A DNA stretch of 64,000 bases, from positions 6,038 through 70,037 of the forward strand of contig CAYPGS010000009.1 in assembly GCA_964410395.1 (NCBI GenBank), given 5' to 3'. Made by a program: the position numbers and the translations under genes. This document shows, one piece after another, positions 6,494 through 64,000 of this stretch (its first letter is position 1; each line of letters begins with the position of its first letter). The stretch comes from an uncultured bacterium. GTDB taxonomy: Bacteria > Krumholzibacteriota > Krumholzibacteriia > JACNKJ01. The notes below the pieces were generated by a model that was not told where the DNA came from, ran no database searches, and was given only the letters and a program-made list of their open reading frames with translations.

Positions 6494-9382
6494 TCAGTGG
6501 ATCACCACCACTTTCCGGGACAGGGATTCCCCGTTCACCTCGAGGCGCAGGAAATAGACGCCGTTGGCGAGCAGTTCCCCCTCGGAATTCCGACCGTTCC
6601 ACCGAAGCGTGTTGCCGCCCGGCAGCGCCCATTCATGATCCAAGGTGTTCAGGCGCCGCCCGCGGGCGTCGAAGATCTCCGCCTTGATCCGATGGGTATC
6701 CCGCAGTTCGAGTGAGAACTCGATCAGTCCTTCGCCGGCGTGGAAGGGATTCGGAAATCCCTGGCTCAGTTCGACGAAGTTCGCGTCGATGGCGCTGCTG
6801 CCGGCTCCATTGTCCAAGGCGAAACGCAGAACGGACAGTCCGCTCGACCGACAGATCAGCTTTTGGCGCTCCTCATCGTAGAAGCTGAGCAGCTGCACCC
6901 GGGAGTCGCTGAAGACCTGAAGGTTTTCCGGACCCATGCCGTCGGGAAAGACGAGGTCGCCATAGTCCCACTCGATGATCGCATCCTGGGTCATCTCGAT
7001 GGCGGGCATGATCTGGTAGACGGCGAGGTCGGGTTCCGCGTCGAGTTGCACGAGCCCCAGCAAGGGGTATTCGTCCAGGCTCCCCGCCTCGAAGTCCAAT
7101 CCCAGAAGCCCGTCGACGCTGATCAGATAGGGGCTTTCCCCGATCCCGATGGGATGCAGGCCGATGTTGTCGAAGATGCAGGTCTGGTTCCCGGCGAGAT
7201 CGCTTCCGCAGGCCTGCACGGAGAAGTCCGCGGCCCCGTGCTCGTAGAGGTACTCCGACTCCCACTGCAGTCCGTCGCTCCCCGCGACTTCGTTCACTTC
7301 GAGAATGATTCCCCAGGCGTCGGCAAAGAGATTCATGTCGACCATTTCCGGATCGAGGATTTCGGAAGCTTCGAGAAGCAGGTGGACGCTCCTCTCCTCC
7401 ACACTCATGTCCAGGCTCAGTTCGGGCGGAATCACATCGGACTCGGTGAGCTGCCCGCTCACGATGAAGGCGAAGCCCTGGGGTCCCATGGGCACGTTCT
7501 CGCCAATGACGCGGAGGGTCCAGACGCCGGTATCGGGATCGGTCACCACCACGCGTTCCACCGAGTTGAGGGGATCGCGCTCGCCGCCGGGCACGCTATA
7601 GCCGTCCGAAAACCAATTGCCCCAGTACTCCTGCCCCGAGGGCGAGGTGAGATGCAGGTCGAGATCGTTGACCACCGCCGGGTTCGCGCTGACCTCGGCC
7701 GGATAGTCCGAGAAGGCCATGGTGACCTTCAGGTCCAGGGAATCGTCGCCCACGGCGAAGGTGTAGATGCGCTCCTGGCCCGTGTTCAGACCCTCGGTGT
7801 GGCGGAAGTCCTGCAGATACTGATCGATGGGCGAATCCTCGCCGAGCTTCATGCCGAGGTTCATCTGGATGCGTCCCCAGCCTTCGCGGTCGCTGGGATA
7901 ACCGCTTACGCCCAGGAGGTCGTGGGTGGAGTTGATCAGGGTGGCCCGCATGAGGGCACCGCTGGGCGTGAAGGCATCTTCTGCCATCGGCGCGCCGCTC
8001 GGATACCAACCCTCCATGAAGTACTCGCGCATGAGCGAGGCCACGCTCACGATGGACGGGCAGGCCATGCTCGTGCCGCCCGCGCCCCGTCCGCGACAGA
8101 AGTTGGGCCAGTCCTCGGGATTGCTCGTGTAGGACTGGGCCGCGGCCCAGACCGTGCGCCCGGGGGCGTAGATCTCGGGCTTGCGCCGCCCGTCGATGGT
8201 AGGTCCCGTACCGCCGTAGCCGTGTTCCTCGAAGAAATCGAGGTCCTCCTCGGTGGCGTTCATGGTGGCGCCCACGGCCAGCACGTTCTTCGCGTTCTCC
8301 GGGGAACGCAGGGTGCTGGTGTTGGTCACGGCGAAGGCGACCATGTCCTCTTCGTTCTCGTGGCTGAACTTGTCGATGTCGTGGCAGTGCTGCGTGTAGT
8401 GGGTGTACTGGTCCTGCCCCCAGGAGTTCGTGTGCAGCCGCGATCCGTGGGAATGATGGATGCCGAGCGTCTCGTAGAGGCTGAAGCCCGTCACGTTGTA
8501 GCGCGAGGTGGCGAAACGCGAACGGAAGGCCTGGCCGCGATTGGTGGTCCAGCCGTAGAGGGGCTCGATGTCCCCGGCCAGGATGCTGGCCGTGTGAAGA
8601 CCGTGGGAGCTGAAGACATTCTGTGGGTCGATGTAGACCACCTTGCGGTGATCGGGCCCCACGGGATAGGCGTCGGGATCGTGGAAGTGGCAGGTCTCCA
8701 GCTGGAACCCTGAATCGATGTGCCCGAGGATCTGCCCCTCGCCGTCAAGGCCCAGATCCCAAACGGGCGTCAGGTCGACTTCCGCCGACTGCACGATCCA
8801 GCGCACGAAATCCAGGCGATCCTGGGCCTCGCCCACCTCGCTCAGCCATCGCAGGCCGGGCAGGGTGGTCAGGTCGGCCACGCGGCTGGCCCCGGCGCGC
8901 AGGAAAACCCGCGGGCTTTCGGCCATTTCGACTACGCGCAGGATCTGCGCTCCCCGGGCCGTGGCCCGGTCGGCGAATCGCGACGCGCTCTCGCCGGGCA
9001 GAAGCATGGCGCTCATCTCCAGTACCCGTCCGCCGCGGCCATCCAGAGCCGGATCCCGGCGCCACTCGGGCCGATAGGGATGTGCGAACTCCACCCCGGG
9101 AAGGCCGCCCTCGCGGGCTCCTACATCGCCCCGAACCAGCAGGTTGTTCACGGGCAGGTAGCCCAGGATCGTGAGGCCCGCCGATTCGAGCATCCCGCGC
9201 TCGCTCTCGCCGATGCGCCCCTCGAAGTGCATCACCCAGAGCCCGTCGTCGACCTCAGGCGGCGCCAGGCGGTCCAGATCGGCCTCGGTGAAACTGCCCG
9301 TGACCAGGTGCAGGGCACCGGGATCCAGGGCCAGGGCCGGCAGGGCCAGGATGAGCAGGGCTAGGGTGAGAACAGCGCGCAT
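6494..9382 (-). CDS. secreted subtilisin-like serine protease (peptidase S8) with T9SS-type C-terminal sorting domain
   Basis: 962 aa; signal peptide MRAVLTLALLILALPALA; catalytic triad contexts GHIDSG (Asp), HGLHTASILAG (His), GGTSMACPSIVSVASL (Ser); C-terminus ...FPNPF...IFD..GRR...W.G....GE.L.NGVYFLRLEVNGESLSRKVVVIH matches Por-secretion-tail pattern. Confidence 0.85.
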   Translation of the reverse strand: MRAVLTLALLILALPALALDPGALHLVTGSFTEADLDRLAPPEVDDGLWVMHFEGRIGESERGMLESAGLTILGYLPVNNLLVRGDVGAREGGLPGVEFAHPYRPEWRRDPALDGRGGRVLEMSAMLLPGESASRFADRATARGAQILRVVEMAESPRVFLRAGASRVADLTTLPGLRWLSEVGEAQDRLDFVRWIVQSAEVDLTPVWDLGLDGEGQILGHIDSGFQLETCHFHDPDAYPVGPDHRKVVYIDPQNVFSSHGLHTASILAGDIEPLYGWTTNRGQAFRSRFATSRYNVTGFSLYETLGIHHSHGSRLHTNSWGQDQYTHYTQHCHDIDKFSHENEEDMVAFAVTNTSTLRSPENAKNVLAVGATMNATEEDLDFFEEHGYGGTGPTIDGRRKPEIYAPGRTVWAAAQSYTSNPEDWPNFCRGRGAGGTSMACPSIVSVASLMREYFMEGWYPSGAPMAEDAFTPSGALMRATLINSTHDLLGVSGYPSDREGWGRIQMNLGMKLGEDSPIDQYLQDFRHTEGLNTGQERIYTFAVGDDSLDLKVTMAFSDYPAEVSANPAVVNDLDLHLTSPSGQEYWGNWFSDGYSVPGGERDPLNSVERVVVTDPDTGVWTLRVIGENVPMGPQGFAFIVSGQLTESDVIPPELSLDMSVEERSVHLLLEASEILDPEMVDMNLFADAWGIILEVNEVAGSDGLQWESEYLYEHGAADFSVQACGSDLAGNQTCIFDNIGLHPIGIGESPYLISVDGLLGLDFEAGSLDEYPLLGLVQLDAEPDLAVYQIMPAIEMTQDAIIEWDYGDLVFPDGMGPENLQVFSDSRVQLLSFYDEERQKLICRSSGLSVLRFALDNGAGSSAIDANFVELSQGFPNPFHAGEGLIEFSLELRDTHRIKAEIFDARGRRLNTLDHEWALPGGNTLRWNGRNSEGELLANGVYFLRLEVNGESLSRKVVVIH

Positions 9383-9945: not shown

Positions 9946-13533
<3,588 letters not shown>

Positions 13534-13535
13534 GC

Positions 13536-13634
13536 CTCCAGCTACCAGCAGCCAGCTACCAGCCGGATCCTCGCATCTCATGTGCGAATGGGAGTATTCC
13601 GGCTGAAAGCTGGCAGCTGGGGGCTGGTAGCTCA
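13536..13634. repeat. CCAGCTN-heptamer inverted-repeat hairpin element, copy A (long form with nested central hairpins)
   Basis: Left arm CCAGCTA CCAGCAG CCAGCTA CCAGCCGG (13538-13566), right arm CCGGCTGAAAGCTGGCAGCTGGGGGCTGGTAGCTC (13599-13634); between PFOR stop and ACD start. Confidence 0.85.
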
Positions 13635-17626: not shown

Positions 17627-17710
17627 CTTCAACTTGAACTCGAAATGAACTCCCCACCCCCATCCAACCGGTGGGGGTTCCTTCTTGTTCAAGTTCACGT
17701 TCAAGTTCAC
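17627..17710. promoter_or_regulatory. repeat-rich intergenic region: inverted GTTCAAGTT copy (17627-17639), hairpin CCCCCA-9nt-TGGGGG + T-rich tail (17657-17690, possible terminator of upstream operon), tandem GTTCAAGTTCAC x2 (17687-17710)
   Basis: All repeats read directly; lies upstream of first Cys-rich paralogue. Confidence 0.45.
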
Positions 17711-19077: not shown

Positions 19078-19089
19078 GGGCAGAATGAA

Positions 19090-19131
19090 CCCGTCTGGAC
19101 ATCAAGCATATCGACTTGATTTCCAGACGGG
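19090..19131. terminator. bidirectional terminator hairpin between convergent genes (10-bp stem CCCGTCTGGA / TCCAGACGGG with inner ATCAAG/CTTGAT stem)
   Basis: Inverted repeats read in sequence; T-rich tail on minus-strand side (ttcattctg). Confidence 0.55.
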
Positions 19132-19147
19132 TTCCAATAGTGGATCC

Positions 19148-46040: not shown

Positions 46041-46328
46041 CTAGAGCTCACCGACGATGTCGATGCTGTTGCCTTCGGCCAGCGTGACGACGGCTTTCTT
46101 CCAGTCGGGGCGCTTACCGCTGAAGCGGCCCATGGTCTTGATCTTGCCCCGGACGTTCATGGTCCGGACGTCTTCCACGGTGACCTTGAACATGGTCTCG
46201 ACGGCGCGCTTGATCTGCGGCTTGTCGGCCTTGCGGTCCACCTCGAAGACGTACTTGTTCTCCGCCATGAGCGCGCTCGTGCGCTCGGTCTGCAGAATGC
46301 GGCGGATGGTCTGGTGCAGGTCGCTCAC
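46041..46328 (-). CDS. rplW: 50S ribosomal protein L23
   Basis: ...[37 protein letters not shown]... Confidence 0.9.
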
Positions 46329-46954
46329 GATCCGAACACCTCCTTGACCTGCTCCAGCGCGGAGGAGGTCATCACGATCTTGTCGGCCCAGAGCACCTGG
46401 TAGGCGTTCAGTTCGCGGCCGACGATGAAGTCGAGGTCGCGCACGTTGCGGGCGGACTTGCTGATGTTGATGTCGTAGTCGTCCATGACCAGCAGGACCT
46501 TGCTGCCGGACACGCCCATCTCGCCGAGAACGCCGGTGAAGGCCTTGGTCTTGGGCTCGTCCATGCTGAGGTCTTCGATGACCAGGACATTGCCCTCCGA
46601 GGCGCGATCGCTCAACGCGGCGAAGAGGGCCTTCCTGCGGGCCTTCCGGGGCATCTTGTAGGAATGATCCCGGGTCTTGGGCCCGAAGGCGGTACCGCCG
46701 CCGACGCGCGTGGGCGACTTGGCGGAACCGGCGCGGGCGCGGCCCGTGCCCTTCTGGCGGTAGAGCTTCGCGGTGGAGCCCGTCACCTCGGAACGATCCT
46801 TGGTGTGGGCAGTGCCGGAGCGCTGGTTGGCCAGGTAATTCCTGACGGCCTCATAGAGCAGGTGCCCGTTGACTTCCTGGCCGAAGATCTCGGCCGGAAG
46901 ATCGGTGCTTCCCTTGCTCTTGCCGTTCGCGTCGTAAAGCGTTGCGTTCGCCAT
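46325..46954 (-). CDS. rplD: 50S ribosomal protein L4
   Basis: ...[48 protein letters not shown]... matches L4 (not L3). Confidence 0.92.
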
Positions 46955-46989
46955 TTCGACTCCCGTCTATCCTTGTCCGGGCTCTGGCC

Positions 46990-47301
46990 TCAGACCTTGA
47001 TCTCGATGTCCACGCCCGCCGGCAGGTCCAGCTTCGTCAGCGCGTCCAGGGTCTGGGGGGATGATTTCGTGATCTCGATGAGGCGCTTGTGGATGCGCAT
47101 CTCGAACTGCTCGCGGCTCTTCTTGTCCACGTGGGGCGAGCGCAGCACGGTATAGAGGCTGCGCTGCGTGGGCAGCGGGATGGGTCCGGAGATCTCGGCG
47201 CCGGTCCGCTTGGCGGTGCGCACGATCTCGAAGGCGGACCTGTCCAGCGTCGCGCTCTCGTAGGCCTTGAGCCTGATCTTGATCTTCTGGCCAGTGTACA
47301 T
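46990..47301 (-). CDS. rpsJ: 30S ribosomal protein S10
   Basis: [45 protein letters not shown]... Confidence 0.93.
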
Positions 47302-47370
47302 TCTTGCTCCTCTTTCGGTCGGCTACTCCAGCATTTCCGTCGTTCGCGGAATCTGCTCGCCTGTCGATTT

Positions 47371-47437
47371 AGCTACCAGCTTCCAGCTACCAGCGACCAG
47401 CTTCTTGCTGGCGGCTGGCAGCTGGCTGCAGGCGGCC
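47371..47437. repeat. CCAGCTN-heptamer inverted-repeat hairpin element, copy B (immediately 3' of tuf stop)
   Basis: AGCTACC AGCTTCC AGCTACC AGCGACC AGC - TTCTT - GCTGGCG GCTGGCA GCTGGCT GCAGGCGGCC; near-identical to copy D1 at 63642-63705. Confidence 0.85.
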
Positions 47438-47439
47438 TT

Positions 47440-48630
47440 TTACTCGTTGATCTTCGTCACCACGCCGGCGCCCACCGTGCGGCCGCCTTCACGGATCGCG
47501 AACCGAAGGTTCTCCTCCATCGCGATCGGCGTGATCAGCTCAACGTCCAGCTTAACATTGTCACCGGGCATCACCATCTCCGTGCCCTCAGGCAGCGTCG
47601 CAACACCCGTCACGTCCGTCGTACGGAAGTAGAACTGGGGACGGTAGCCCTGGAAGAAGGGAGTATGACGGCCGCCCTCTTCCTTCGTCAGGATGTAGAC
47701 CTCGCCCTCGAACTTCGTGTGAGGCGTCACGCTGCCAGGCTTCGCCAGCACCATGCCGCGCTCCAGGTCGCTCTTCTCCACGCCGCGAAGCAGAAGGCCC
47801 ACGTTGTCGCCAGCCTGGGCATCGTCCAGAAGCTTGCGGAACATCTCAACACCGGTCACCGTCGTCTCGAGCGTGTCACGGATGCCGATCCGCTGGACCT
47901 TGTCGCCCACCTTCACCACGCCGCGCTCGATACGGCCCGTGCCCACCGTGCCGCGACCCGTGATCGAGAAGACGTCCTCGACCGGCATCAGGAAGGGCTT
48001 GTCCGTGTCCCGCTCAGGCTCCGGAATGTAGCTGTCGATCGCTTCCAGAAGCTCGTCGATGCTCTTGTTTGCCGCATCGTCCTCAGGGTTGTTCAGGGCC
48101 TGAAGCGCGCTGCCCCGGATGACCGGAATGTCGTCGCCCGGGAACTCGTACTCGCTCAGAAGCTCGCGAACCTCGAGCTCCACCAGGTCCAACAGCTCTT
48201 CGTCGTCAACCTGGTCCACCTTGTTCATGTAGACCACCATGTAGGGAACGTTCACCTGACGACCCAGCAGAACGTGCTCGCGGGTCTGGGGCATCGGGCC
48301 GTCGGCCGCGCTCACCACCAGAACCGCGCCATCCATCTGAGCCGCACCCGTGATCATGTTCTTCACGTAGTCGGCGTGACCCGGGCAGTCAACGTGAGCG
48401 TAGTGACGGTTCTCCGTCTGGTACTCCACGTGAGCCGTCGCGATGGTGATGCCGCGCTCGCGCTCCTCAGGAGCCTTGTCGATCTCGTCGAAGGGCGTGA
48501 ACTCGGCAAGGCCCTTGGCGCCCTGACGCTGAGTGATCGCCGCCGTCAGCGTCGTCTTCCCGTGGTCAACGTGACCGATCGTACCCACGTTTACGTGCGG
48601 CTTTGTCCTCTCAAACTTCTCTTTCGCCAT
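47440..48630 (-). CDS. tuf: elongation factor Tu (str-operon copy)
   Basis: 396 aa; [32 protein letters not shown]... Confidence 0.97.
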
Positions 48631-51926: not shown

Positions 51927-51942
51927 CCCGTTAGGGAATAAA

Positions 51943-52011
51943 AGCTACCAGCTTCCAGCTGCCAGCTACCGGCCAGAATCCGGCTGGGAGCTGGTTGCTG
52001 GCGGCTGGCCG
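51943..52011. repeat. CCAGCTN-heptamer inverted-repeat hairpin element, copy C (immediately 3' of rpoC stop)
   Basis: AGCTACC AGCTTCC AGCTGCC AGCTACC GGCC - AGAAT - CCGGCTGGGAGCTGGTTGCTGGCGGCTGGCCG. Confidence 0.85.
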
Positions 52012-56226
<4,215 letters not shown>

Positions 56227-62433: not shown

Positions 62434-63240
62434 CTAGAGGGGTTCAACCTGGAGGAAGTCCAGTTCCACAGGCGTCTCCCTGCCGAAGATGGTCACCATG
62501 ACTTTCAGAGTTCCTCGCTCCTGGTTGACCTCGTCGACGATGCCGTTGAAATCGCTGAAGGGCCCGTCCATGACCTTCACGTGGTCGCCCACGTGATAGG
62601 GAATCTCGGTGGGCTTGTGCTCCGCGGGCCTCTCGATGCGCCCCAGAACCCGATCCACTTCGGCCGGACGCAGGGGCACCGGACGGCGGGACGGTTCGCG
62701 CGGGTCCAGACCCACGAAGCTCGTCACGCCGCTGATTCCATTGACGAGGTGATAGGCCTCGTCGCACATCTCCATCTCGACCAGGATGTAGCTCGGGAAG
62801 TACTTCCGCGTGGCGGTCGTCTTCTTCCCCTTCTTCATCTCCGTCACCTCTTCGGTGGGGATGAGAACCTGGCCGACCTTGTCCTCCATGCCCTCCAGGG
62901 CCACCCGGCGAAGCAGGTTTGTGCGCACCTTGTTCTCGTGTCCCGAGTAGGTGTGCACGGCGTACCACTTCAGCTTCGGGTTGCGAGGCGCTTCGGGCTG
63001 CTCGGGCACGGCCGCGGGCAGTTCCTCTTCGACCTCGTCGGAATCCTCTTCCTCGTCAGCCTCCGCTTCGACCTCCGCCGCCTCGAGAGTCTCCTCCTCG
63101 GCGGTTTCGGTTTCGTCCTTCTCGGGCTCGACGACCTCTTCGACCTCGCCCCCTCCCGCGAAAGGATTCTCAACGGGAGCGGAAGCCTCGGGCGCGACGC
63201 CTTCGGCTTCGGAAGCTATGTCCTTCTCCCGCTCTTCCAT
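62434..63240 (-). CDS. nusG: transcription termination/antitermination factor NusG with ~85-aa acidic N-terminal extension
   Basis: NGN + KOW core (...KLKWYAVHTYSGHENKV... ...HVGDHVKVMDGPFSDFNGIVDEV...) preceded by E/D-rich low-complexity region. Confidence 0.92.
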   Translation of the reverse strand: MEEREKDIASEAEGVAPEASAPVENPFAGGGEVEEVVEPEKDETETAEEETLEAAEVEAEADEEEDSDEVEEELPAAVPEQPEAPRNPKLKWYAVHTYSGHENKVRTNLLRRVALEGMEDKVGQVLIPTEEVTEMKKGKKTTATRKYFPSYILVEMEMCDEAYHLVNGISGVTSFVGLDPREPSRRPVPLRPAEVDRVLGRIERPAEHKPTEIPYHVGDHVKVMDGPFSDFNGIVDEVNQERGTLKVMVTIFGRETPVELDFLQVEPL

Positions 63241-63276
63241 GATTCCTCCAGGAGGGTCAGTGGTGAGTGTTGAGGT

Positions 63277-63474
63277 TTAGGAACCCAGCAGACGGGTGAT
63301 ACCGTCGATGCCGAAGCCCATGACGCGGTCGATGAGAAAAATGAACACGGTCAAAAGAATGGAGCCGATGATGACCACACGCGTGGATTCCTTCAGCTCG
63401 TCCCGGGTCGGCCAGGTGACCTTGCCCATTTCGAGCCAGACCTCGCGAACGTAGTTCTGGAGTCTCGTGAACAT
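63277..63474 (-). CDS. secE: preprotein translocase subunit SecE
   Basis: MFTRLQNYVREVWLEMGKVTWPTRDELKESTRVVIIGSILLTVFIFLIDRVMGF...; ORF-track start 63621 reads through tRNA-Trp and is rejected. Confidence 0.88.
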   Translation of the reverse strand: MFTRLQNYVREVWLEMGKVTWPTRDELKESTRVVIIGSILLTVFIFLIDRVMGFGIDGITRLLGS

Positions 63475-63486
63475 CTCGGATCCTTT

Positions 63487-63554
63487 CCAGCTTCCAGCTC
63501 CCAGCTCCCAGCTTCCAGCTTTCTGGCTGGCCGCTGGCTGCTGGCTGCTGGTGG
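63487..63554. repeat. CCAGCTN-heptamer inverted-repeat hairpin element, copy D2 (five perfect tandem heptamers; between tRNA-Trp and secE)
   Basis: CCAGCTT CCAGCTC CCAGCTC CCAGCTT CCAGC - TTTCT - GGCTGGC CGCTGGC TGCTGGC TGCTGGT GG. Confidence 0.85.
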
Positions 63555-63563
63555 CTTCTTCGG

Positions 63564-63637
63564 CAGGCCAGGAGGGATTCGAACCCCCAACATCCGGTTT
63601 TGGAGACCGGCGCTCTACCAATTAGAGCTACTGGCCT
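63564..63637 (-). tRNA. trnW: tRNA-Trp (anticodon CCA)
   Basis: RC reads AGGCCAGTAGCTCTAATTGGTAGAGCGCCGGTCTCCAAAACCGGATGTTGGGGGTTCGAATCCCTCCTGGCCTG: 7-bp acceptor stem, anticodon loop CUCCAAA, T-arm GGTTCGAATCC. Confidence 0.85.
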
Positions 63638-63641
63638 ACTG

Positions 63642-63705
63642 AGCTACCAGCTTCCAGCTACCAGCAGCCAGCTTCTTGCTGGAGGCTGGCAGCTGGCCGC
63701 TGGCC
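63642..63705. repeat. CCAGCTN-heptamer inverted-repeat hairpin element, copy D1 (3' of rpmG; near-identical to copy B)
   Basis: AGCTACC AGCTTCC AGCTACC AGCAGCC AGC - TTCTT - GCTGGAGGCTGGCAGCTGGCCGCTGGCC. Confidence 0.85.
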
Positions 63706-63710
63706 ACTCT

Positions 63711-63860
63711 TTACCTTGCTTCCTTGAAAATCGTGTGCTGCCGGTCCCGGGGGCAGTACTTCTTCTGCTCGATCCGGTCCGGATGAAGCCGCTTGTTCTT
63801 CATAGTGGTGTACCAGTGCTTCTCGCACTTGGTGCAACGCAGCTTGACGATCTCGCGCAT
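63711..63860 (-). CDS. rpmG: 50S ribosomal protein L33
   Basis: Unlisted ORF translated by hand: MREIVKLRCTKCEKHWYTTMKNKRLHPDRIEQKKYCPRDRQHTIFKEAR (zinc ribbon CxxC...CxxxxH); AAGGAG SD. Confidence 0.85.
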   Translation of the reverse strand: MREIVKLRCTKCEKHWYTTMKNKRLHPDRIEQKKYCPRDRQHTIFKEAR

Positions 63861-63871
63861 GATGCGGCTCC

Positions 63872-64000
63872 TTATTCGTTGATCTTCGTCACCACGCCGG
63901 CGCCCACCGTGCGGCCGCCTTCACGGATCGCGAACCGAAGGTTCTCCTCCATCGCGATCGGCGTGATCAGCTCAACGTCCAGCTTAACATTGTCACCGGG
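63872..64000 (-). CDS. tuf: elongation factor Tu, second copy (C-terminal end only; continues past window)
   Basis: 63877-64000 is nucleotide-identical to 47445-47568 (3' end of the str-operon tuf); stop codon TAA at complement 63872-63874. Confidence 0.9.

Follow-up and report, generated by a model that had tools for sequence, protein, structure and literature searches.

Short tandemly repeated repetitive (STRR) elements of cyanobacteria are 7-bp repeats that form hairpins between genes, for example between hupS and hupL, and it has been proposed that they affect how stable transcripts are (PMC2670836). Heptamer direct repeats of the TAACTGA type are found in Beggiatoaceae, Cyanobacteria and Bacteroidetes, with a patchy distribution and no known mechanism (MacGregor 2015, PMC4679880). 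Among other intergenic palindromes, the repetitive extragenic palindromic (REP) sequences and the bacterial interspersed mosaic elements (BIMEs) have been proposed to act in mRNA stabilisation, in termination and at the DNA level (PMC3733652), and parts of two reports on selective RNA processing and stabilisation (SRPS) operons describe stem-loops that set differential transcript stability (PMC4423207, PMC8219983). The present analysis concerns a 64 000-nt stretch of DNA from an uncultured bacterium (contig CAYPGS010000009.1 of assembly GCA_964410395.1; this whole stretch is hereafter called the window), in which the gene for tRNA-Trp lies between two hairpins built of 7-nt units. These hairpins belong to a small family located at gene 3′-ends, and their position is kept between related genomes while the sequence of the unit is exchanged.

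The tRNA-Trp gene is part of a string of genes that all lie on the minus strand (tuf-rpmG-hairpin-tRNA-Trp-hairpin-secE-nusG-rplK-rplA-rplJ-rplL-rpoB-rpoC). An earlier note on this DNA had placed the tRNA between two heptamer hairpins, with rpmG, secE and nusG as neighbours; ARAGORN and Rfam for the tRNA, Pfam for rpmG and secE, and Tandem Repeats Finder (TRF), self-matching and folding for the flanks all agreed with this description. The flanks are 65–75-nt hairpins made of inverted period-7 arrays at positions 63485–63557 and 63641–63709 and, in the transcribed sense, their 5′ arms read (CCAGCNN)n and their 3′ arms (GCUGGNN)n. TRF returned a period of 7 with 3–5.3 copies per arm (5.3 and 3.7 copies in the downstream element), and the self-match at lag 7 was 0.79 for 63485–63557 and 0.71 for 63641–63709, values reached by none of 5000 shuffles. 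The motif CCAGCTNCCAGCT, allowing at most one mismatch, was found 23 times in the window, against 0.66 matches expected. When the gene strand was folded, each element was predicted to form a single hairpin, of –53.4 kcal/mol (z = –7.2) upstream and –47.7 kcal/mol (z = –6.0) downstream, in agreement with the structured hairpins of the earlier note; both elements are strongly structured and lie inside the tuf-rpmG-tRNA-secE-nusG string. Rfam searches (gathering thresholds for the whole window; E ≤ 5 for positions 63250–63900) returned the tRNA alone, the remainder being sub-threshold microRNA-hairpin noise.

The upstream hairpin starts 1–2 nt past the rpmG stop codon, and 3 nt (AGU) separate its base from position +1 of tRNA-Trp. 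On the other side, the linker GAAGAAGCC, of ∼9 nt (5–10), runs from the tRNA 3′-end to the first paired base of the downstream hairpin. The flanks had been said to abut the tRNA with no gap; adjacency holds, the literal absence of a gap does not (3 nt upstream, 5–10 nt downstream). The downstream array ends at 63487, which leaves the 12 nt (63475–63486) before the secE ATG (63472–63474) that had been described, and the ribosome-binding site GGAAAGGA sits within this segment. Neither flanking element is followed by a U-tract, a feature of intrinsic terminators. Independent assemblies of several sequencing runs share alleles of the downstream hairpin (identical in the Logan assemblies L121–L123) and of the element at the rpoC end (one allele per strain type, found in several independent assemblies); the sequence is therefore no assembly artefact. 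Samples in which these strains occur include SRR31802805, SRR24302418 and ERR2281803. The octamer GCTGGTGG, identical to the Escherichia coli Chi site, occurs once in the downstream element (63546–63553, plus strand) and is missing from the other copies, so that its presence is probably a coincidence.

A covariance model (R1) was built from four copies of the repeat and run with filters off over the 64 kb. It recovered exactly five elements, the next best match having an E-value of 0.09. Period-7 arrays are otherwise scarce: nine were found in 64 kb, seven of them within the five elements. All five are extragenic and share the unit CCAGCNN, paired with NNGCUGG, in hairpins of 20–27 bp where 5-bp helices are interrupted by 2 × 2 internal loops. 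Besides the two tRNA-Trp flanks, they comprise elements A, B and C (Table 1). Each starts 0–10 nt past the 3′-end of a gene, within strings of co-directional genes, and four of the five lie at boundaries between blocks of translation-apparatus genes. Element A fills the spacer from the stop codon of the pyruvate:ferredoxin oxidoreductase gene to the ribosome-binding site of that for an ADP-forming acetyl-CoA synthetase; when a fixed polarity relative to transcription or to the chromosome was sought, this element was seen to score equally in R1 on both strands. Element B and the upstream tRNA-Trp element are identical at 58 of 63 positions, loop included, which indicates that they are copies of one another rather than independently grown arrays. 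Element C is the one member with a U-tract and was picked up by a terminator consensus scan; together with its UUUUAUU it is, judging from the sequence, the predicted intrinsic terminator of rpoC, and a promoter-like TTGACA for rpsL lies 13 nt beyond it. Ordinary terminators are also used by this genome, e.g. after rplQ.

What the elements accompany is the 3′-end of a gene or an operon junction, and no general link to tRNAs is seen. The earlier note had asked whether other copies and other tRNA loci would show the same arrangement. The link to co-directional gene and operon junctions was found at the other copies, that to tRNAs was not. In relatives, a Thr-Tyr-Gly-Thr cluster of four tRNAs lies ∼1.5 kb upstream, and none of the four is flanked by such elements. 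When genome contigs were scanned with CCAGCTNCCAGCTNCCAGC, the matches listed were mostly coding 21-nt repeats and sequences from unrelated taxa; the CCAGC-type hairpins among them came mostly from metagenome-assembled genomes (MAGs) of Acidobacteriota, and at ten such loci of other genomes no tRNA was present in the sequence examined. The bracket around tRNA-Trp is therefore best read as two junctions, one behind rpmG and one behind the tRNA, that happen to adjoin. Two of the Acidobacteriota contigs, L012 (6616–6727 and 7608–7737) and L013 (4685–4774), carry heptamer hairpins of the unit CCAGCTW/WAGCTGG that are almost perfect and reach –96 kcal/mol; the first hairpin of L012 and that of L013 fill the spacer from one stop codon to the next start codon between co-directional genes. 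The CCAGCTW unit of the window recurs here in a different phylum; Acidobacteriota MAG contigs with CCAGCTW hairpins include CAWGBU010000008 and JBKPLP010000145.

To follow the locus in other genomes, relatives were chosen via NusG homologs, the nearest of which belong to MAGs labelled Latescibacteria or Krumholzibacteria, and orthologous loci were obtained by exact-protein look-ups. The hairpin pair at tRNA-Trp is present in the window and in six relatives (L124, L127/L133, L216, L217, L219 and L220). In these carriers, one hairpin ends 3–4 nt before tRNA-Trp and the other at the GAAAGGA ribosome-binding site, the site GAAAGGA(T/C)CC being kept in all seven lineages. The rpmG-secE spacer measures 236 nt in the window, 201–239 nt in L124, L127/L133, L216, L217 and L220, and is of similar length in L219. 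With hairpins at both positions and at equal spacing in seven related lineages, the bracket is no one-off coincidence. In contrast, the spacer is 126–134 nt long and free of hairpins in L130, L132 and L134, and ∼45 more distant tRNA-Trp-secE-nusG loci, among the matches listed, have no period-7 arrays near tRNA-Trp; a metagenome scan with NusG, whose listed matches were mostly distant relatives, provided negative controls. In a neighbour-joining tree all hairpin carriers fall into one clade, and the position of the bracket is thus shown to be inherited within one narrow clade.

While the position is inherited, the unit is not constant. Both flanks carry CCAGCNN in the window, and both belong to the CCAGTCG / GACTGGA family in L124, where they are near-copies of each other, and in L217. 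In L127/L133 (read from L127) the upstream flank is made of CCGCYNN and the downstream one of GTCGCMA; in L219 they are CCGC-like and GCCAAWA, respectively. L216 has degenerate flanks, the downstream one being weak (–18 kcal/mol), and L220 combines a degenerate upstream flank with a short, non-periodic and weak downstream one (–8 kcal/mol). Over lineages and sites, the units include CCAGCNN, CCAGTCG, CCGCYNN, GCCAAWA and GAACTGW. The GCCAAWA unit of the L219 downstream flank is also found in L124 at 7470–7560, downstream of cysS and ∼190 nt before the tRNA-Thr cluster, where a fourth type of array (GCCAAGA GCCAAAA GCCGAGA GCCAATG) forms part of a degenerate hairpin with TTTTTTT behind it and appears to be the cysS terminator.

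Pairing survives these changes on the upstream side, where the hairpin is stable in seven of seven lineages (–33 to –53 kcal/mol) at a flanking divergence of 4–25%. L220 is a case in which the units no longer resemble each other and the arms still pair; for the seven upstream elements RNAalifold predicted 22 pairs, 11 of them with compensatory changes. The rpoC end behaves likewise: with alignable sequence downstream, the window has CCAGCNN plus UUUUAUU, L128 CCGCCTA plus UUUUCUU, and L222 GAACTGW plus UUUUCU. Elsewhere, copies of these unit families have no U-tract; it is peculiar to the rpoC end, which indicates that the terminator function belongs to the rpoC-end site and that the hairpin is an exchangeable stem. 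The window and L124/L222 are 95–96% identical over 32 kb, in which the only 40-nt windows below 70% identity are four heptamer elements, and L124/L222 carries different units at all four orthologous sites tested. At the tuf-rpsJ site of L222 (GCA_964344565.1, 14343–14405), orthologous to that of element B, the array is lopsided and consists mostly of direct repeats: its 5′ side holds ∼1.5 units (GTCGCCA GCCAG) and its 3′ side 5.5 units of CTGGAGA in direct orientation, so that one arm has grown without its partner.

Table 1. Features of the tRNA-Trp locus and members of the heptamer family (positions in the window)
Feature	Position	Strand	Description
tRNA-Trp (anticodon CCA)	63562–63637 (ARAGORN); 63564–63637 (Rfam RF00005, 65.3 bits)	minus	
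Upstream element (rpmG-tRNA spacer)	63638–63710	minus	CCAGC/GCUGG hairpin, 4+4 heptamer units, loop AAGAA; R1 91 bits
Downstream element (tRNA-secE spacer)	63481–63561	minus	CCAGC/GCUGG hairpin at 63487–63556, 4–5 units per arm; R1 89 bits
secE ribosome-binding region GGAAAGGAUCCGAG	63475–63486	minus	Directly 3′ of downstream hairpin; unpaired in predicted fold
rpmG (ribosomal protein L33)	63711–63860	minus	Pfam PF00471, E 2e-19
secE	63277–63474	minus	Pfam PF00584, E 4e-19; ATG 63472–63474
nusG	62434–63240	minus	
Element A	13531–13634	unassigned; plus-strand genes	CCAGC-type heptamer hairpin with 35-nt loop insert
Element B	47367–47439	minus	CCAGC-type heptamer hairpin, 2 nt past tuf stop codon, upstream of rpsJ (S10) leader; no U-tract
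Element C	51939–52015	minus	CCAGC-type heptamer hairpin from rpoC stop codon, then UUUUAUU

Some further features of the region were recorded. The tRNA-Trp gene encodes its 3′ CCA only in part (CCG follows the discriminator base). Hairpins without heptamers stand behind plus-strand open reading frames (ORFs) at 17631–17696 (–30.6 kcal/mol, z = –6.0) and 19085–19140 (–38 kcal/mol, z = –5.9), the former holding GAACT/AGTTC cores reminiscent of the GAACTGW unit in the L222 rpoC terminator. Two minus-strand copies of tuf are present (47440–48630 and 63872 to >64000). The window holds only the last ∼130 nt of the second one; compared over ∼128 nt, a 3-nt offset being allowed, the two copies differ by one base. 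Many metagenome contigs of the window lineage are ∼15.5 kb long and terminate at tuf, and in L128 tuf is fused to rpmG without a gap, seemingly because the assembly collapsed at the duplicated gene. The NusG protein (62434–63240) has an N-terminal extension of ∼85 residues, very rich in Glu and Asp; its homologs at 100% query coverage come mostly from the hairpin-carrying clade, and the alignment of most others begins near residue 86. An unusual feature for an S10 operon is that, by the gene calls, the gene for L4 comes directly after that for S10 (L222 14478–15454; window 46325–47301), and no L3 gene (rplC) intervenes.

The explanation that we favour, and to which we give about an even chance, is that these elements are heptamer-periodic palindromic intergenic repeats which act as RNA-end hairpins and turn over by concerted evolution or conversion. 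At tRNA-Trp, where the geometry fits, the hairpins would serve as structural insulators and end-protectors, a more specific form of the suggestion in the earlier note that hairpins abutting a tRNA could guide RNase processing. Cleavage by RNase P would leave the tuf-rpmG mRNA ending in the upstream hairpin and a 3-nt tail, an end that 3′ exonucleases would degrade poorly. A cut at the 3′ trailer of the tRNA, plausibly of the RNase Z type since the CCA end is not encoded as such, would leave the secE-nusG mRNA headed by the downstream hairpin with its ribosome-binding site free, and both hairpins would keep the flanking mRNA from mispairing with the tRNA. The units, in turn, may be rewritten by slippage within arrays, by palindrome-templated correction of the arms and by copying or conversion between loci, processes that would make the cassettes diverge far faster than their surroundings.

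Several points weigh against this explanation. The RNA-level roles at tRNA-Trp are drawn from geometry, and a high expression of the flanking genes (translation apparatus, pyruvate:ferredoxin oxidoreductase, acetyl-CoA synthetase) is assumed from gene identity. An RNase Z-type cut would leave a 9-nt single-stranded 5′ tail, which would make 5′ protection only partial; two lineages (L216 and L220) have only a weak downstream hairpin, and the relatives without hairpins (L130, L132 and L134) manage with neither. Moreover, when the folding energies of sense and antisense strands were compared for 20 elements, the sense was the more stable in 10 of the 20, and the L128 terminator folds far better as antisense. 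Since the transcribed strand is not consistently preferred, what preserves the palindrome may be processes acting on the DNA and not selection for an RNA structure; template switching within the palindrome, or conversion, would account for the pairing equally well.

It is possible, although we find it doubtful, that the elements are neutral or selfish repeat DNA which persists in permissive spacers via replication slippage, template switching and ectopic conversion. The tRNA-Trp hairpins would then do nothing for the cell, with co-option only where a U-tract follows, as at rpoC. The lack of strand bias in folding energy agrees with this, as do the extremely fast turnover of units, which makes the elements the sole hypervariable segments in the 32-kb comparison, the one-armed expansion at the L222 tuf-rpsJ site, the decayed copies in L216 and L220, and the sister lineages devoid of elements (L130, L132 and L134, and ∼45 distant loci among the matches listed). 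In addition, the function of heptamer repeats in other phyla is still unknown after decades (PMC4679880; PMC2670836). Neutrality does not, however, sit well with a stable upstream hairpin in seven of seven lineages, including one that lost the periodicity and kept the pairing, nor with hairpin boundaries that are constant relative to the tRNA and the ribosome-binding site. Without exception, the five copies of the window directly follow the ends of genes whose expression is likely to be high, and the rpoC end has kept its U-tract through three unit families.

We regard it as unlikely that the heptamer hairpins are rewritten by a dedicated, horizontally transferable activity that installs its own unit at gene-end hairpins; this could be a recombinase, or a polymerase using a 7-nt template. 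Such an activity would explain the differing units at four orthologous sites in a genome that is 96% identical, the single unit shared by all five window copies, and the CCAGCTW hairpin in Acidobacteriota MAGs. Were it real, the cyanobacterial, Beggiatoaceae and Bacteroidetes heptamer repeats might stem from a similar process.

It also seems improbable that the RNA hairpin is incidental and that the elements are DNA-level sites at which a protein binds or acts, for instance a nucleoid protein or gyrase (as proposed for BIMEs), a factor of replication or repair, or a recombinase. The palindromes are equally good on both strands, element A matches R1 equally in both orientations, copying between loci looks like conversion, and REP sequences and BIMEs set a precedent (PMC3733652). 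However, no candidate protein was found among the 26 ORF translations of the window that were scanned, five unit sequences at equivalent sites argue against a sequence-specific DNA-binding protein, and transcription accounts better for the strict placement after stop codons and for the rpoC-end U-tract.

The possibility that the two flanks pair with each other, enclosing the tRNA in a long stem like the RNase III stems around 16S and 23S rRNA, is very slight. The minimum free energy fold of a 301-nt transcript does join both elements around the tRNA, at –148 kcal/mol against roughly –126 kcal/mol for separate hairpins (an estimate that assumes about –25 kcal/mol for the tRNA), and the two flanks of L124 share one unit family. 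During transcription, however, the upstream hairpin forms before the tRNA exists, and in L127/L133 (CCGCYNN versus GTCGCMA) and L219 the flanks cannot pair, the fold being two local hairpins and a cloverleaf; these non-complementary flanks rule out the long-range stem as a conserved function. The suggestion of the earlier note that the tRNA gene acted as an insertion hotspot, taken here to mean that the hairpins are remnants or ends of a mobile element, has equally little chance of being right: tRNA genes are classical integration sites, and the elements are absent from more distant relatives (L130, L132 and L134), but here the tRNA enclosed by the two elements is intact and no insertion separates them from the flanking genes, a Pfam scan of 26 ORF translations from the window yielded neither an integrase nor a transposase, the locus has no duplicated tRNA 3′-end, the four tRNAs clustered nearby are unflanked, the ten CCAGC-type loci of other genomes (among the matches listed) have no tRNA, and the other three window copies are not at tRNAs.

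Whichever process rewrites them, heptamer repeats (STRR sequences and those of Beggiatoaceae and Bacteroidetes) have been catalogued for decades without a known function or origin, and the locus described here is an unusually clean comparative system for them. The position and length of the hairpin and its spacing to the tRNA, the ribosome-binding site or the U-tract are fixed, while the 7-nt unit is exchanged. With the position fixed and the unit switched, the part that is conserved, a long interrupted hairpin behind a gene, can be told apart from the part that may vary, the sequence of the unit. The cassettes could serve as strain markers. Repeats of this kind can break short-read assemblies; here the contig breaks fall instead at the tRNA and at the duplicated tuf.

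Compared with the described systems, the locus shares a part of its features with each. It departs from an rRNA-type RNase III stem in that complementarity between the flanks is not conserved (L127/L133, L219), and from an integrative element that targets tRNAs in that no integrase is adjacent and no repeat of the tRNA end is present at this locus. As far as the parts of the SRPS reports consulted describe them, the stem-loops of those operons are, like the elements here, very stable and placed directly after the stop codon of the upstream gene within an operon. The match is one of geometry only (the hairpins here start 0–2 nt past the stop codon), since the SRPS stem-loops form no repeat family and have no 7-nt periodicity. 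With REP sequences, BIMEs and the related REPINs, the elements have in common that they are short, repeated, imperfect palindromes, intergenic and at gene 3′-ends. The heptamer GGTAGCT, which contains the REP-like tag GTAG, ends four of the five window copies and is missing from the downstream element. However, the tag is absent from the other unit families at equivalent sites, a 7-nt internal periodicity is no feature of REP sequences, and these measure 20–40 nt as against 60–100 nt for the elements here. Nor was a gene for a REP-associated tyrosine transposase (RAYT, a Y1 transposase) found among the 26 ORF translations scanned against Pfam. The lack of a constant GTAG (REP palindromes carry GTAG or CGTC at one end) across the unit families, and of a transposase among the 26 ORFs, led to the rejection of membership in the REP/RAYT system.

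The TAACTGA-type repeats are nearer, being intergenic heptamer arrays close to ribosomal and other essential genes. The GAACTGA unit at the L222 rpoC end matches TAACTGA at six of seven positions, and the L222 tuf-rpsJ array is mostly direct, as those repeats are. They differ in that TAACTGA-type repeats are direct and lie just upstream of start codons, with one inverted case reported, whereas the arrays here are inverted, form hairpins and are anchored to the 3′-end of the upstream gene.

The closest known kind is the 7-bp STRR repeats of filamentous, heterocyst-forming cyanobacteria, which the window elements resemble. Both consist of tandem 7-bp units in non-coding DNA (here a TRF period of 7 and a self-match of 0.66–0.79, reached in 0 of 5000 shuffles), and in both inverted arrays fold into hairpins between genes. 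The canonical units are CCCCAGT (STRR1), TTGGTCA (STRR2) and CAACAGT (STRR3), and STRR sequences reportedly also occur inside the RNase P RNA gene. None of these units is matched by those found here, the nearest (CGCCAGT and CTCCAGT) being one position in seven off STRR1. The host differs as well, since STRR sequences belong to filamentous heterocyst-forming cyanobacteria and the NusG relatives here are labelled Latescibacteria or Krumholzibacteria; unlike STRR sequences, all copies here are inverted pairs directly behind gene ends. In keyword searches of the literature no heptamer hairpins were described outside cyanobacteria, exact-sequence searches for the repeat returned nothing relevant, and no account of units exchanged at orthologous sites in genomes that are nearly identical was found for STRR sequences in the literature searched. 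The finding thus adds to the known, unexplained heptamer repeats a variant with its own host phylum, its own units, anchoring to gene ends and unit switching.

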